Source: Escherichia phage C119
DNA: 47,319 nucleotides
Sequence record: NC_042046.1
Strand: one strand, 5' to 3'
Positions 16,936 through 42,540 of the stretch are shown here, in pieces (the stretch's first letter is position 1; each line of letters begins with the position of its first letter). The position numbers and the translations under genes were made by a program. The notes beneath the pieces are model-generated. The model searched no databases. It saw nothing but the letters and a program-made list of their open reading frames with translations, and was not told the origin of the DNA.

Positions 16936-16958
16936 ATGATTAAGCCCCTTTCGGGGCT
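16932..16958. terminator. Bidirectional rho-independent terminator between gpJ-like gene (+) and receptor-binding gene (-)
   Basis: aagcccctttcggggctt hairpin flanked by T-rich sequence on the plus strand. Confidence 0.7.
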
Positions 16959-16965
16959 TTTTCTT

Positions 16966-17937
16966 TTAGTAGAAGTTGGGAATAAATGGAAGTGCCATTG
17001 ATATGTTTGTATCAAATGGGAATTGCGCGCCAGTTTGAGTTGAATAGTTACCTATAACAGTGCCTGGGACGGCTCTAACTGAACCTCCAGACATGCAAAC
17101 ACCCTTGTATCGTAAGTTATTATATCCACCAGTGACTCTAGTTGTCGCTCCGCATCTAAGTATTGGGAAGAACCCACCATTCACCGACTGGTAACCATTA
17201 TTAATCTGCATAAATCCACTTAGAACAAATGGCCTCCTGACGCTAGAGAAAACTATCTTCCCAGCGCTGTTTGATATCGTTAAACCCGGACCAGCTACTG
17301 GAGGTGTATTATTGAAAATAACTAACTGAACGTAAGTACTTGCAGCAACATCATCAATCCCATTGTACGTTATATCCCTACACCATATCGTACTACCATC
17401 ACTTTCAAGTGATACGTTTTGGTTATCCCATTTACCAAAAGGAATGCCGCCAACTGGCAATGATGCAGAGCCATTAACCTGGATGCCACCAACCCAAGCA
17501 GCAGTCATTAATCTGGAATTACTTGATATCGCTGTAAAGTCAGTCGAGTTCTCAACAAGGACACCGGGGCTTGATTGTGATGATGCTGGTAAAATCTCAA
17601 AGCACTGACCGCCAAACTGCAATATGCGACCATTAGCGCCGTTAAAGTTACTTAATGTAATCCTTCCAACCCCATCATTAACCTTCGAGAACCCATTCAT
17701 GTAATAAACTTCTGGTATAACATCATATGCATCAACATAAACAGCCTGAGTTGGCAGGCAGAATGCTGTTGAGCCAGGAGTCATAGTCAGACCGAAATCC
17801 CATGATGATGCTGGTGAGCTTAACCCGCTAGTGTTTATTGAACCAGTCACGGCTGGAACTCTCAAGCCAGCTGTAATTTCCATTGCTGGCCTTCCGTCAT
17901 TCAAATCTATCAAGATACCTTGAGGCATTATTTCCAC
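16966..17937 (-). CDS. Putative receptor-binding protein / tail fibre (323 aa)
   Basis: Minus-strand ORF convergent with the gpJ-like gene, Gly/Ser/Asn/Thr-rich beta-type composition, immediately downstream of a lipoprotein gene (Llp-pb5-like arrangement). Confidence 0.5.
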
Positions 17938-18173
17938 TCCTTTGAGCCGTGATCTGCAACTGAGCCGCCGTAGCCTCCACCAACCTTTGACTCAATGCCA
18001 GCATAACGAATATCAACCTCTCCAGCTGCAACAATAACACCACCTTTCCACTTAGCTACGCAAACATCACCCGCCTGAGTCGCACACCATCCGTCAGGGC
18101 GCGGACCAGAAGAACAACCTACCGTCATGATTGCTGCTGCTGCGATGATTGCTGATTTGATGAAGTTAGTCAT
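17928..18173 (-). CDS. Small lipoprotein, candidate superinfection-exclusion factor (Llp/Cor-like)
   Basis: Minus-strand ATG at 18173 with AAGGAA RBS; N-terminus [23 protein letters not shown] has a signal peptide plus lipobox; mature part about 60 aa with two further Cys; overlaps the start of the receptor-binding gene. Confidence 0.6.
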
Positions 18174-18356
18174 TTTGTATTCCTTAGTCAGTATGTTTCG
18201 TTTCGATGGAGTAACTATAGCAAAGGCTTCTGCTGTAGTCTTTAGCAAATCGTGCTATTTTATATACGCGTAACCGATGTAACTCGATGTATACAATCTC
18301 ATCCGCTGAAAATTGTATACGCTTTTTACGCGAAGATACGCATTAGTTACATTTAT

Positions 18357-18424
18357 AAATCCTTATATAATAAGGGTTTAGAGTATTATTATTATTATAT
18401 ATATTACTATGTATATCTTGTAAC
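18357..18424. repeat. AT-rich element copy A with (TTA)n microsatellite
   Basis: aaatccttatataataagggtttagagtattattattattatatatattactatg...; near-identical to the element at 38617-38686; lies in a divergent intergenic region. Confidence 0.8.
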
Positions 18425-18719
18425 TACTCTCTATAGCTATGTTGTTGTGTTTTACTAAAATACTATGTTTGATTTCCTGTTAAGGAGAAAATGCATATAT
18501 ATATAGATAGGGTGCAAATTTGGTGGATACATTGGTTACAAGGGTTACATTCAGCATTCATGCGGCGTACAGAGCATCAAAGCGTATTTATGTGAGTTTT
18601 ACAGCTATATACAAAATAGCACGAATAATCAAAAAGCATGATTCCTGATTGGTTATAGTGCACTCACCGGCAGCAGTGGTGCTGCTTTTGATGCAAAAAA
18701 TGCACCACAAAATCCGGGA

Positions 18720-19451
18720 GTGAAAATAATTCAACCCCAAAAACTAGAGATGATAGATATGAATCTGATTAATATTGATGAAAACGTAACCATGAGTAGC
18801 CTTGAAATTGCCGAGATCACGGGAAAGCGACATGACCACGTATTAAGGGATATAAGGGAGATGCTAAATGATGAAGAGGTATCCCCAGATTTGGGGACAC
18901 CATGCGTAGTTGATGATAATACAAAATTGTATTCTCAAAATGGAGGATGTGGCCTCAAATTTGAGGGCACCTACACTAACGAGCAAAACGGTCAGTCTTA
19001 CCCATGTTTTAACTTGCCATACCGTGAAACTATGATTTTGATGGTCGGTTATAACAGAAAGGTAGCCGCAAGAATTATTGACCGCTGGCTTCATCTTGAG
19101 CGGGAGAATAAATTACTAAAAGACCACATGAAGAAGATGGTTTCACTTGACGAGGTCAAAGTTTACAAGATCGAGGCTGCGTCAGCAAAAGCCGCGCAGC
19201 ACAGAGCTGAGGATAACTATTACGCGATTGAGAAGTTCATGTTTAAGAGCATGGATAAGTGTGGAAATCCTGCGGAACTTGATGAGCAATACTTCGATGT
19301 TAAGTTCGAGTCAAATCGTTACCATGACTCTCAAGAGGTGGTTTACAAATATCAGGCTCAGCTTGAGGTTGCCTGCGAAAAGTTAAAGGCTAAAGATGAG
19401 CTTATTGCTAATCTAGTTGATAAGAATAGCGAGATTCTTAAGTTGAAATAA
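18720..19451 (+). CDS. Rha-family phage regulatory protein / antirepressor-like
   Basis: N-terminal region contains SSLEIAEITGKRHDHVLRDIREML, a signature I recognise from Rha/antirepressor proteins; start ambiguous (GTG 18720 or ATG 18750/18759/18792). Confidence 0.6.
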   Translation: MKIIQPQKLEMIDMNLINIDENVTMSSLEIAEITGKRHDHVLRDIREMLNDEEVSPDLGTPCVVDDNTKLYSQNGGCGLKFEGTYTNEQNGQSYPCFNLPYRETMILMVGYNRKVAARIIDRWLHLERENKLLKDHMKKMVSLDEVKVYKIEAASAKAAQHRAEDNYYAIEKFMFKSMDKCGNPAELDEQYFDVKFESNRYHDSQEVVYKYQAQLEVACEKLKAKDELIANLVDKNSEILKLK

Positions 19452-22385: not shown

Positions 22386-22411
22386 ATAAAGCCCCTTTCG
22401 GGGCTTTTTTA
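22386..22411. terminator. Bidirectional terminator between ssb (+) and tailspike (-)
   Basis: aaagcccctttcggggcttt hairpin with A-tract upstream and T-tract downstream. Confidence 0.75.
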
Positions 22412-25126
22412 TTGTGACGTTACATCACCATTCAAACTCAAAAATACTGATTGTTTTGTCAAATCAACACCACCTTTAAGCGAATAGTATCTTGAAGCGC
22501 AATAATCAGACTCATCTGAATAGCTGCCAACGTAAACACCAAAGCCATATCCAGAGCAAGCTACATCACCAGCGCCTTGACCTGAATACATGGTTACATA
22601 GTTACCAGCTGTTGTTAGTATAGGTCTGACATCAATATCTATATACTGAGAATCAAATGACCTTCTAACTCTAAATCCAGTATTCAGGTTTAAGATGCTC
22701 CACCAAACCTTACCAGATACATCAAAACCAAGAGCAATATTGTAAGTACCACCATTGACCATTCTTGATGAGACTGGCAACACACCTGATAAAACTCTTG
22801 TTTCACCTGATGCTGATATTAACAATGAGACACTGTGTTCTCCTGATGCCATCACGTTATACTGCAAGTAAAGAGCATTACTATTAACTCCAAAACCAGT
22901 CCCTATAGCTATAAGGTTAAAGTCTTCAGCAACAGTTATGGTCGGCGATATATTGCATGTAGCGGTGAAACCTAGTGACGGGTCAAATCCAGTGCATATA
23001 ATCTTATCTTTATTTGCCTGTGAAAGCCTTAGCCAATATTGCTGCCCAACTGATGATGCCGCTGCGGCGAATACTGGTGTATTAGAGACCCCATCAAAAG
23101 CTGAAGTGTCGTTTGCTGGCTTAATTCTTGTCTTCCTTTTGTCTATCAGTCCGTTTATCTTCAGGTTTCCTGAATACTCAGCAACATAGTTAGTGTCCCC
23201 TGAGAAATTTGGGCCAAAGTAACCAGATTCAACAACCCCATCGATCACAACATCAGATCTTGAGTCAAGGAATCTGAAGTTGCCAGCGGAAGTTGGCCTT
23301 CCATCGCCATTGTTAGATACATAGTTAAGCCCAACAAAACCATAGATTCTTACAGAGCTATTTGAAAACGAAACGTTATAATCTCTGTAGTTTGAGTTTA
23401 TGCTGTTCCTGTTACTATTTAATCCATTAAATACCACATTTCTAGAGTTTACAATTCTAACACCGTCACCACCGCAATCCTGCGCCTCTATAGCTGACAT
23501 GGTGATGTTTTGGCAGTTATCAATCAGGATGCCATAAGCATCATCAAGCTCATTATAAGCCGACCAACCCGACCAAATAAACTTACCGCCAACAATCCTA
23601 CAGTTTCCGGCATTCCTAAGTATTAGACAATTTCTTCCACAGGTGTTTACCTTTATGTTATTCCATGTGAAGTCTGTTGTTTCGTTAATCAATCCGTCTT
23701 TTTTTATGTGCTGAATAAGAACATCATCAAGAACAGGAGAGTAGTTACCAGCAGCAACGAAAATTCCGTAAACATCAAACCCAGCAATGTGAGTGTTTCT
23801 TATCGTTAAGTCCCTCCTAGGGTCAGCACCAGTGTTGAATGGGTAATTGGTTGATAACCCAGTCGGCGTAGGGATGTAAATCCCAGCAGTACCATCAGTA
23901 AACGCCGTGTCTTGCTGGGCTCCAGTGCCGTAAAGAGCAATACCTTCAATATGAATGAGCGAGCAAGAATCAGAAACCTCAATTAAAGAGCCAATTGATG
24001 AACTAAGCTGAGTTATTCTTGACTTGTGCTTGCCAAAACCAATTATAGAGCAAGATTTATTTCTCATTACCAGGTTTGATGCCATGTAGTCGCTATCAAG
24101 CTTTAATGCCAGCCCGGAGTCTAGGATTTGCTGTATCTGTGTCGTTGAGTCTGATGTCGATGACTTAATGGCCCCAAGTTCGCAAGGCGACAGCTCCCCG
24201 CTACAGATTCTTTCCCAGTAATAACCTGTACTTGATTCAAAAACCAATCCTGAAGATAATCCATATGATAAAGATGACTCCGGCTTACAAACAAAGAACC
24301 CACCACCATAACCAAGACCACCAATGTAAGAATCACAATAGACAACCTCTAAGTCATAAATTCTGGCAGAGTTTGTCATTGCTGATACTGATTCAAACCT
24401 TCTTGTGTAATCCTGTTGAATCCAAAAACCAACTCCAATACCACCTGTAGACTGTGGTGATGAGTTTTGTGGTATGGATTTTGGAACGCTACCAGACCAG
24501 TAATAAACCGAAACATGATTGTCATTAAAGTAAATTGCAGGCTGAGTTCTTGAGTTTATTTCTCCACCATTTGAGAAATCAACTACAAGAGCAGATGACA
24601 CAGAAGCCGCAGCAGAGCTTGCTATTGTAGCTGAAGAGGAAGCCGAGTTAGCGCTACTTTCAGCTAACTGCCTATCAGAAGATACCTGATCTTTGTCAGA
24701 AGAAACTTGAGCAGCATCAACAGCAACTTGCTGAGATTGCATGTTGACATTATTTACGCTTTGCTGGAAAGAATCAGAATCAAATTGATTAAAAGCATCA
24801 ACTGCCGCTGCAACCTCTGTTTCACGGGACTGATAATAACGAAGTGTCTCAGCAACGTCCTGAGCAAGACCTTGGACAGTAATTCCGTCATGAGCAAGGA
24901 TTGAGTACTGAGTCCCAGCTGGCGCAGTAAAACCTTTATCATTGAATACACGAATCTCTGTATCGCTTAAAATCTCAGCGATAGTAACAATGCTTGTCGG
25001 GGTGGTGTTAAAAATCATTGTTGCGCCAACTCGGATTAGCGTTAGTGGTTGCCTCCACGTGGTGCCAACACCAGTTACAGTTCCGTCAGCTGCAAGCGAT
25101 GCAGTTCCAGCGTCATAAATTGCCAT
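22409..25126 (-). CDS. Tailspike / tail fibre with right-handed beta-helix (pectate-lyase-like) domain; candidate depolymerase
   Basis: 905 aa; N-terminal anchor-like region, Ser/Ala-rich linker, then long Asn/Gly/Ile/Val-rich repeats (...NCRIVGGKFIWSGWSAYN...GILIDNCQNITMSAIEAQDCGGDGVRIVNSRNVVFNGL...) typical of beta-helix tailspikes. Confidence 0.65.
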   Translation of the reverse strand: MAIYDAGTASLAADGTVTGVGTTWRQPLTLIRVGATMIFNTTPTSIVTIAEILSDTEIRVFNDKGFTAPAGTQYSILAHDGITVQGLAQDVAETLRYYQSRETEVAAAVDAFNQFDSDSFQQSVNNVNMQSQQVAVDAAQVSSDKDQVSSDRQLAESSANSASSSATIASSAAASVSSALVVDFSNGGEINSRTQPAIYFNDNHVSVYYWSGSVPKSIPQNSSPQSTGGIGVGFWIQQDYTRRFESVSAMTNSARIYDLEVVYCDSYIGGLGYGGGFFVCKPESSLSYGLSSGLVFESSTGYYWERICSGELSPCELGAIKSSTSDSTTQIQQILDSGLALKLDSDYMASNLVMRNKSCSIIGFGKHKSRITQLSSSIGSLIEVSDSCSLIHIEGIALYGTGAQQDTAFTDGTAGIYIPTPTGLSTNYPFNTGADPRRDLTIRNTHIAGFDVYGIFVAAGNYSPVLDDVLIQHIKKDGLINETTDFTWNNIKVNTCGRNCLILRNAGNCRIVGGKFIWSGWSAYNELDDAYGILIDNCQNITMSAIEAQDCGGDGVRIVNSRNVVFNGLNSNRNSINSNYRDYNVSFSNSSVRIYGFVGLNYVSNNGDGRPTSAGNFRFLDSRSDVVIDGVVESGYFGPNFSGDTNYVAEYSGNLKINGLIDKRKTRIKPANDTSAFDGVSNTPVFAAAASSVGQQYWLRLSQANKDKIICTGFDPSLGFTATCNISPTITVAEDFNLIAIGTGFGVNSNALYLQYNVMASGEHSVSLLISASGETRVLSGVLPVSSRMVNGGTYNIALGFDVSGKVWWSILNLNTGFRVRRSFDSQYIDIDVRPILTTAGNYVTMYSGQGAGDVACSGYGFGVYVGSYSDESDYCASRYYSLKGGVDLTKQSVFLSLNGDVTSQ

Positions 25127-42464: not shown

Positions 42465-42540
42465 GTTCTGCTGGCGTAACAGGATAACGCAGAGACCTCC
42501 TAAGTCTCAGTTACTGGTTCGAGTCCAGTGCGGAACACCA
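42465..42540 (+). tRNA. tRNA-Arg (anticodon CCU, reads AGG) with encoded CCA
   Basis: Hand-folded cloverleaf: acceptor gttctgc/gcggaac (7 bp, one G-U), D-arm gcgt-aacaggata-acgc, anticodon arm gagac-ctCCTaa-gtctc (U33, A37 present), 4-nt variable loop, T-arm actgg-TTCGAGT-ccagt, discriminator A, CCA. Confidence 0.75.

Follow-up and report, generated by a model that had tools for sequence, protein, structure and literature searches.

Which receptor does Escherichia phage C119 recognise, and what does the small gene beside its candidate receptor-binding gene do? The question is raised by two overlapping minus-strand genes that lie next to the gpJ-like tail gene in the window (the whole stretch of 47,319 nucleotides that was analysed, record NC_042046.1). 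In the records of related phages these genes carry the labels 'hypothetical protein', 'membrane protein' and 'putative lipoprotein', and the receptor-binding proteins (RBPs) of the genus were still called poorly known in the 2024 paper on phage UDF157lw. Our analysis makes it very probable that the two genes form a host-recognition module, composed of an LptD-binding RBP and of an exclusion lipoprotein whose likely target is LptDE.

Genomic setting and layout of the locus

The locus is 99.9% identical to that of phiJLA23, 99.6% to that of phiKP26 and 96-99% to those of JK06, Rogue1, AHP24, AHS24 and UDF157lw, and the same degree of relatedness to Rogunavirus phages holds across 25 kb elsewhere in the window; in the compared stretches, identity to phiJLA23 ranges from 99.6 to 99.9%. 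Because of these identities, we assign the window to a Rogunavirus genome (Drexlerviridae, T1-related), that is, to a Rogue1/JK06-like siphophage.

A preliminary description had proposed that the larger of the two genes converges on the gpJ-like gene, and this is borne out: the stop of the RBP gene lies 30 bp from the gpJ-like gene (Table 1). Within the gap lies a G+C-rich hairpin (16942-16959). On the plus strand a T-run comes after it; read on the minus strand, the hairpin forms without a T-run. In the AHP24 record the matching position bears terminator annotations for both strands. Upstream, the lipoprotein gene is flanked by ~550 bp of non-coding, A+T-rich DNA, where a single sigma-70-like match was found (18388-18415); we regard this promoter candidate as weak because the scan returned fewer sites in the real sequence than in shuffled sequence. 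The AHP24 record has a promoter annotated at the equivalent place. The sole match of an Rfam scan of the window is a tRNA, distant from the locus.

Table 1. Features of the C119 locus, in window coordinates.
Feature	Position	Strand	Basis or remark
gpJ-like central tail fibre / tail tip protein gene, 1141 aa	13510..16935	+	Pfam domains, phrog_31
Last ~35 gpJ codons, FAFNGTNNTVVINNNGITVNLPNGGRVVVGVW, putative RBP docking segment	16828..16932	+	Co-variation with RBP type
Receptor-binding protein (RBP) gene, 320 aa, DUF6453, LptD type	16966..17928	-	PF20051, 9RPT_C match
Rtp45-type prolipoprotein gene, 81 aa	17928..18173	-	Sequence, PF24052, Rtp45 match
Lipoprotein ribosome-binding site AAGGA	18181..18185	-	7 nt 5' of ATG; read from sequence
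Sigma-70-like promoter candidate TATACA-16-AATAAT	18388..18415	-	Consensus match 9/12, ~215 nt upstream of lipoprotein gene

The smaller gene encodes an Rtp45-type lipoprotein

The smaller gene runs on the minus strand from an ATG at 18173 to a TAA at 17928-17930 and encodes 81 aa. Its predicted signal peptide (aa 1-19) has a lysine at position 6 and then a hydrophobic core without charge (aa 7-19); a T-V-G-C lipobox follows, with the lipobox cysteine at position 20 (codon 18114-18116) and Ser21 at +2. The mature protein, starting with CSS, comprises 62 aa and has extra cysteines at 30 and 38. These features agree with the preliminary description, which had spoken of a small lipoprotein with a signal peptide, a VGCSS lipobox, a mature part of ~60 aa and two more cysteines.

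The product matches the 'Phage lipoprotein family' profile PF24052 over the entire model (positions 1-80 of 80; E 3.6e-38) with 129.8 bits, the cut-off of the family being 27 bits. A search of the PDB matched one chain, 9RPS_D, which is Rtp45 of phage Rtp (E 2.4e-33). Over the alignment with Rtp45 the identity is 78%, residues 19-34 and 37-43 are invariant (Cys20, Cys30 and Cys38 included), the signal peptide, lipobox and +2 Ser feature is identical, and the strand by which Rtp45 pairs with LptD is kept (CATQAG here, CATQAS in Rtp45). Identity to OzMSK_039, the lipoprotein of phage OzMSK, is 89%. By this homology the 81-aa product is an Rtp45-type lipoprotein, predicted to be lipidated, to bind LptDE and to act in superinfection exclusion. 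Relative to Rtp45, a 5-residue Gly-rich insertion is present around aa 61-65. This insertion is specific to the Rogue1/OzMSK group.

The larger gene encodes an LptD-type receptor-binding protein

The open-reading-frame listing gives the larger product as 323 aa from a GTG at 17937. This GTG lies within the AAGGAG ribosome-binding site (17937-17942), and an ATG sits 8 nt past the same AAGGAG, at 17928, where the homologues and annotated relatives all begin with MPQG or MAQG. The overlap with the ribosome-binding site and the starts of the homologues rule out the GTG, and the product is therefore 320 aa long, encoded by 16966..17928. Of the overlap with a 323-aa protein that had initially been proposed, the overlap itself stands, whereas both the length of the protein and the size of the overlap had to be revised: the lipoprotein stop and the RBP start share one base, in TAATG. 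This 1-nt overlap is found in 9/9 T1-like relatives examined, namely Rtp, OzMSK, AHP24 and six IMG/VR loci in which lipoprotein ORFs upstream of the RBP gene were sought with an ORF script and tblastn; in one of these six loci (L010) the lipoprotein homologue is GTG-initiated. The lipoprotein and RBP genes are conserved as a coupled pair.

The 320-aa protein matches PF20051 (DUF6453; E 5.7e-138, 459.6 bits) and, over aa 2-320, chain C of the PDB entries 9RPT, 9RPW and 9RQI, which is the RBP of phage Oekolampad on LptDE (E 9e-67 for 9RPT_C). Its identity is 88% to OzMSK_038, 42% to Rtp44, 42% over 100% coverage to the RBPs of Oekolampad and FritzHoffmann and 40.5% to that of TheodorHerzl, and homologues occur in 362 phage records. 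Gln298 here aligns with the LptD-contacting Gln299 of the Oekolampad RBP. Searches with NCBIfam profiles gave no match for the lipoprotein or for the 320-aa protein. The LptD-type RBP family has been delimited by >30% identity and >99% coverage (bioRxiv 10.64898/2026.04.02.716166); the 320-aa protein falls within both limits and is encoded directly downstream of a gpJ homologue. On these family relationships it is an LptD-type RBP, and the term 'beta-rich' first applied to it agrees with the two-beta-sandwich models of the family (PMC13035648). Both minus-strand genes are genuine, as had been supposed, given the profile matches to PF24052 and PF20051 and the retention of the pair in all nine relatives.

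The tip of gpJ varies with the type of receptor-binding protein

The gpJ-like protein contains the Pfam domains FNIII-A_GpJ, Phage-tail_3 and Phage_Tail_Tip and belongs to phrog_31, central tail fibre J. Its last ~35 residues follow the pattern FAFNGTNNTV.IN.NGITVNLPNGGRVVVG.W, and the last ~37 aa are covered only by phages with a DUF6453-type RBP. Among five phages whose RBP is of the DUF6453 type, identity over the C-terminal ~70 aa is 77-89%; for T1, which is of the FhuA type, it is 37%. LptD-specific features of the gpJ C-terminus have been described, and the gpJ tip is associated with specificity, possibly for compatibility with the RBP (bioRxiv 10.64898/2026.04.02.716166). On the co-variation of gpJ with RBP type, the C-terminal ~35 residues of gpJ are probably the docking site of the RBP.

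LptD is the expected receptor

In small siphophages the RBP loci downstream of gpJ are interchangeable, and each locus type corresponds to one receptor, with no exceptions in BASEL (Maffei et al., 2021; PMC8594841). Small in-frame deletions in lptD stopped seven BASEL phages of the LptD locus type (PMC8594841), and among 101 siphoviruses FhuA, BtuB, LptD and YncD each go with one of four unrelated protein families encoded at the locus, again with no exceptions (bioRxiv 10.64898/2026.04.02.716166). OzMSK, a laboratory contaminant, was behind an outbreak among T1-resistant strains in which FhuA is disrupted and, tested as whole phage, fails on the lptD mutants Delta(Y658-Y678)::H and Delta(L394-V396)::Y (Black et al.). 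The same study counts the RBP of Rogue1 among the predicted LptD binders, its model being 0.36 Å RMSD from the OzMSK model, and distinguishes three RBP sequence groups that may differ somewhat in binding (Black et al.). Given the homology of the C119 RBP to the RBPs of LptD-dependent phages, LptD is the expected receptor, and we consider that it is almost certainly LptD that this phage uses, not FhuA or BtuB. The latter two had been put forward as candidates in the preliminary description; the RBP family tracks LptD, and the FhuA, BtuB and YncD types are unrelated families.

Other readings of the RBP and of its receptor fare less well. It is hardly credible that the 320-aa protein belongs to the host cell, as a membrane protein or moron, instead of serving the virion as its RBP: phrog_1265 does label it 'membrane protein; moron, auxiliary metabolic gene and host takeover', and 'membrane protein' is the RefSeq name of its relatives, but its sequence has neither a hydrophobic N-terminus nor a transmembrane stretch, three cryo-EM data sets place an RBP homologue on the extracellular face of LptDE, and the locus directly after gpJ tracks receptor use across phage families. 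The PHROG label was dropped because of the missing membrane segment and of the homologue structure on LptDE. A module as described that would nevertheless target a TonB-dependent transporter (FhuA, BtuB), with a lipoprotein acting like T5 Llp or T1 Cor, is very improbable. FhuA, BtuB or YncD use is indeed common among T1-like phages (PMC8594841), and T1 Cor faintly resembles the lipoprotein in BLASTP (31% over 75 aa, E 7e-4 for a single pair; a second match covers only the signal peptide and lipobox). On PF24052, however, Cor scores 17.7 bits, under the 27-bit cut-off and partly through its signal peptide and lipobox, and T5 Llp and pb5 are without alignment to the C119 proteins (BLASTP: none at E<=100 for the lipoprotein against Llp, best E 6.3 for the RBP against pb5). 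Further, specificity for FhuA, BtuB and YncD at this locus resides in RBPs of unrelated families, and OzMSK, with its 88% identical RBP, infects FhuA-disrupted strains and is stopped by lptD mutations. Quite unlikely, finally, is a need for LptD that would not suffice, with a second receptor read by a gpJ domain and a lipoprotein that blocks one of the two contacts. Bas01, whose RBP is 96% identical to Rtp44, needs NupG as well as LptD, which is credited to a gpJ domain, and the gpJ of C119 is itself a large multi-domain protein; yet the NupG-specific gpJ sequences are unique to two Braunvirinae phages (bioRxiv 10.64898/2026.04.02.716166), and gpJ here has the usual size, the 1141 aa also found in OzMSK, without a C-terminal extension.

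A predicted mechanism of exclusion

With LptD as the probable receptor, the solved complexes of relatives indicate how the pair could act. The structures 9RPS and 9RPT/9RPW/9RQI come from one study (Dunbar et al., PNAS 2025; PMC12685063). In 9RPS, Rtp45 occupies the periplasmic side of closed LptDE(M), lodged between LptE and LptM; its strand 30-35 pairs with LptD 318-323, Cys30 and Cys38 form a disulfide, and its hairpin extends up the LptD lumen and pushes loop EL4 aside by as much as 20 Å, which is not compatible with binding of the RBP (PMC12685063). In 9RPT, the Oekolampad RBP is bound to open LptDE, with Gln299 hydrogen-bonded to LptD Ser350. The same study reports that AlphaFold3 mispredicts both Rtp45 and the Rtp45-LptDE complex. 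In the accessible literature the exclusion role of Rtp45 is deduced from structure; the accessible text of PMC12685063 contains no plating assay with Rtp45-expressing cells, and in the accessible literature we found no report of in vivo exclusion by an Rtp45-type lipoprotein; nor did the accessible literature yield a report of LptD-loop dependence or LptDE binding for any Rogunavirus. From homology we infer that the C119 proteins would act as those of its relatives do, in vivo exclusion included. An RBP paired with a superinfection-exclusion lipoprotein was also the functional proposal made at the outset, and it is supported by full-length homology to the proteins of 9RPS (78%), 9RPT (42%) and OzMSK (88%); since the homologues in 9RPS and 9RPT have solved receptor complexes, this functional reading appears to be right.

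We hypothesize that the RBP is located at the tip of the gpJ-like fibre, probably docked on the C-terminal ~35 residues of gpJ through its conserved N-terminus, and that its other end would insert into the extracellular mouth of open LptD, resulting in irreversible adsorption. The lipoprotein would be made from the same transcript as the RBP, with translation of the two coupled via TAATG. Once exported and lipidated at Cys20, it would be delivered to the outer membrane and reside in its inner leaflet, because a Ser at +2 is not an inner-membrane retention signal. It would then bind LptDE on the periplasmic side, between LptE and LptM, its strand ~30-35 pairing with LptD, and its hairpin in the lumen would lift EL4 by ~20 Å, leaving an LptD that refuses the RBP. 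Infected cells, and the debris left by lysis, would thus cease to adsorb LptD-using phages.

The benefit that the phage draws from such a lipoprotein could also be understood differently. We consider it unlikely that the main benefit of LptDE binding is the protection of progeny from debris, or else an alteration of LPS export by closed LptDE. Such roles would be consistent with the co-transcription and translational coupling of the lipoprotein with a late structural gene (T5 llp, by contrast, has its own promoter and is divergent from oad) and with the fact that Rtp45 occupies the lumen and binds the closed state (PMC12685063). But a receptor block serves exclusion and progeny protection alike, so that the two are not alternatives, and LptM is retained in the Rtp45 complex, with no effect on LPS transport reported in the accessible text (PMC12685063). 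A broader idea, just as doubtful, is that the lipoprotein is a general LptDE clamp that would cross-exclude all LptD phages and, with the translocon closed, change LPS export and the envelope before lysis; the Gly-rich insertion could tune this activity. The idea is suggested by the coupling to a late gene and by the LptD-contacting core being 70-89% identical while the RBPs are at ~40%. An LptD-binding RBP combined with a lipoprotein that excludes superinfecting phages remains our preferred reading.

Comparison with named systems

Phage Rtp (Drexlerviridae, Braunvirinae) has Rtp45 and Rtp44 downstream of gpJ in the order and orientation seen in C119, and its two genes likewise overlap by 1 nt; its lipoprotein, 78% identical, shares the lipobox, the strand 30-35 and the Cys30/Cys38 pair, and both RBPs are DUF6453 proteins. 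It differs by its RBP (42% identical) and by a lipoprotein that lacks the five additional residues of C119 near aa 61-65, and C119 belongs to the Rogunavirinae. In vB_EcoS_OzMSK the layout is again the same, beside a 1141-aa gpJ, with an RBP (OzMSK_038) and a lipoprotein (OzMSK_039) 88% and 89% identical to those of C119, but a DNA methylase gene in the same orientation lies directly upstream, where C119 has ~550 bp of non-coding DNA. Oekolampad (Bas18, Dhillonvirus) shares the RBP fold family, with an end-to-end match (E 9e-67) and Gln299 kept, as well as the logic of the locus; it differs in genus, in the sequence of its RBP (42% identical) and in its lipoprotein bas18_0026, only 35% identical to Rtp45 (PMC12685063). 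Overall, the two members of the pair have diverged unevenly, with 78% identity for the lipoprotein and 42% for the RBP in the comparison with Rtp, and 70-74% and ~40%, respectively, in that with Dhillonvirus phages of the HK578/TheodorHerzl type. This pattern fits frequent recombination in the module, and equally a faster divergence of the partner that is exposed at the surface.

The arrangement had been said to match those of T5 (llp-pb5) and T1/phi80 (cor), which proved not to be the case: the C119 genes are co-oriented and overlapping, unlike both. In T5, llp and oad are divergent and have separate promoters (T5 record); in T1, gpJ is followed by two genes in the same orientation, and cor stands apart from them at the far end of the locus, in the opposite orientation. 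Kinship with T5 Llp and T1 Cor holds as a functional analogy; homology to T5 Llp/pb5 is ruled out by the BLASTP comparisons with the T5 proteins. T5 Llp (precursor of 77 aa) resembles the predicted C119 lipoprotein in being a small outer-membrane lipoprotein that inactivates the receptor of its own phage's RBP, FhuA in the case of pb5, from the periplasmic side. However, the T5 receptor is a TonB-dependent transporter, and Llp acts on FhuA by long-range allostery, as opposed to the steric displacement of EL4 by Rtp45 from inside the LptD barrel (PMC12685063). Similarly, Cor of T1, phi80 and N15 (FhuA) is a small lipoprotein of the tail-fibre region that inactivates the receptor, with weak sequence resemblance to the C119 protein.

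Implications for Rogue1/JK06-like phages

The module is already known, since the Rogue1 RBP has been listed as a predicted LptD binder; the publications on the module, on its receptor and on both structures date from 2021-2025, and the locus reveals no new biology. What is gained is annotation: the two genes can be named as those of an LptD-type RBP and of an Rtp45-type exclusion lipoprotein. Rogue1/JK06-like phages are under study for the control of E. coli O157:H7. For these phages, the module predicts that the terminal receptor is the essential LptDE, the lipopolysaccharide translocon; that resistance would come from small in-frame alterations of the LptD loops and not from losing the receptor; and that they would be cross-excluded by other LptD-targeting phages.

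Distribution of the lipoprotein and receptor-binding protein genes

Coupling of the lipoprotein gene to the receptor-binding protein (RBP) gene is not universal, since in Klebsiella T1-like phages (PNU90, and also mtp2 and mtp3) the homologues of the DUF6453 RBP (~31% identical) and of the lipoprotein (~54% identical) are non-adjacent and lie ~10 kb from each other. DUF6453 proteins 43-48% identical to the RBP of the window are also encoded in 74 of the 80 IMG/VR loci listed (L012-L085), which resemble Salmonella phages FSL SP-016 and 29485; none of these 74 carries an Rtp45-like lipoprotein gene within 3 kb. At L013, the one locus of this group viewed in detail, the DUF6453 gene follows the tail tip gene gpJ in the same orientation, overlapping its end, and is itself followed by a gene for a 443-aa fibre.

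The T1 lipoprotein Cor matches the PF24052 profile below threshold (17.7 bits, residues 3-51), and one of its cysteines aligns with Cys38 of Rtp45-type proteins. Cor and the Rtp45-type lipoproteins may be remote relatives that diverged along with their receptors.

Coordinates of the features compared
Feature	Location	Strand	Remark
Klebsiella phage PNU90, PV402688	19703-20656 and 30255-30485		DUF6453 homologue and lipoprotein homologue
T1 cor	L003 (T1):14624-14851		compared with window 17928-18173
DUF6453 locus L013	L013:23-5269		example of the L012-L085 group
Escherichia phage FS2B, MW929182 (Kuravirus)	L086:526-825 and L087:1483-3487		PF24052 lipoprotein / DUF6453 protein
A+T-rich non-coding DNA, ~550 bp	window 18174-18719		between lipoprotein gene and divergent 243-aa gene
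243-aa gene	window 18720-19451		divergent from lipoprotein gene
905-aa ORF	window 22409-25126	-	position of lateral tail fibre / tailspike gene
tRNA-Arg, anticodon CCU	window 42465-42540	+	Rfam / ARAGORN

Other genes of the window

In the non-coding region upstream of the lipoprotein gene, (TA)n and (TAA)n-like runs occur at ~18385-18500; at the matching position the close relative OzMSK has a DNA methylase gene. For the divergent 243-aa gene beyond this region, relatives carry the annotation regulatory protein or anti-repressor. The 905-aa ORF occupies the same position as T1 gp26, Rtp50 and OzMSK_047 (lateral tail fibre or tailspike). C119 probably binds its primary receptor, O-antigen, through the product of this ORF, which is distinct from the LptD module. 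The tRNA-Arg gene is the sole match of Rfam or ARAGORN in the window.

Both protein families in podophages

Both families extend to the Kuravirus podophages (Gordonclarkvirinae, ~76 kb), represented by FS2B and further by MN03, TH06, Bas86 and Bas88. Their lipoprotein is a full PF24052 member (120 bits) with an LTGC lipobox and an RPDGWCA...GVCV core, and their DUF6453 protein (87.6 bits) is encoded immediately after a protein with a gpJ-type Phage_Tail_Tip domain. The lipoprotein and DUF6453 genes are separated by tens of kb. No link between Kuravirus and LptD was found in the literature searched. Given that these phages encode both the PF24052 lipoprotein and the DUF6453 protein, LptD is predicted to be a terminal receptor of Gordonclarkvirinae podoviruses.
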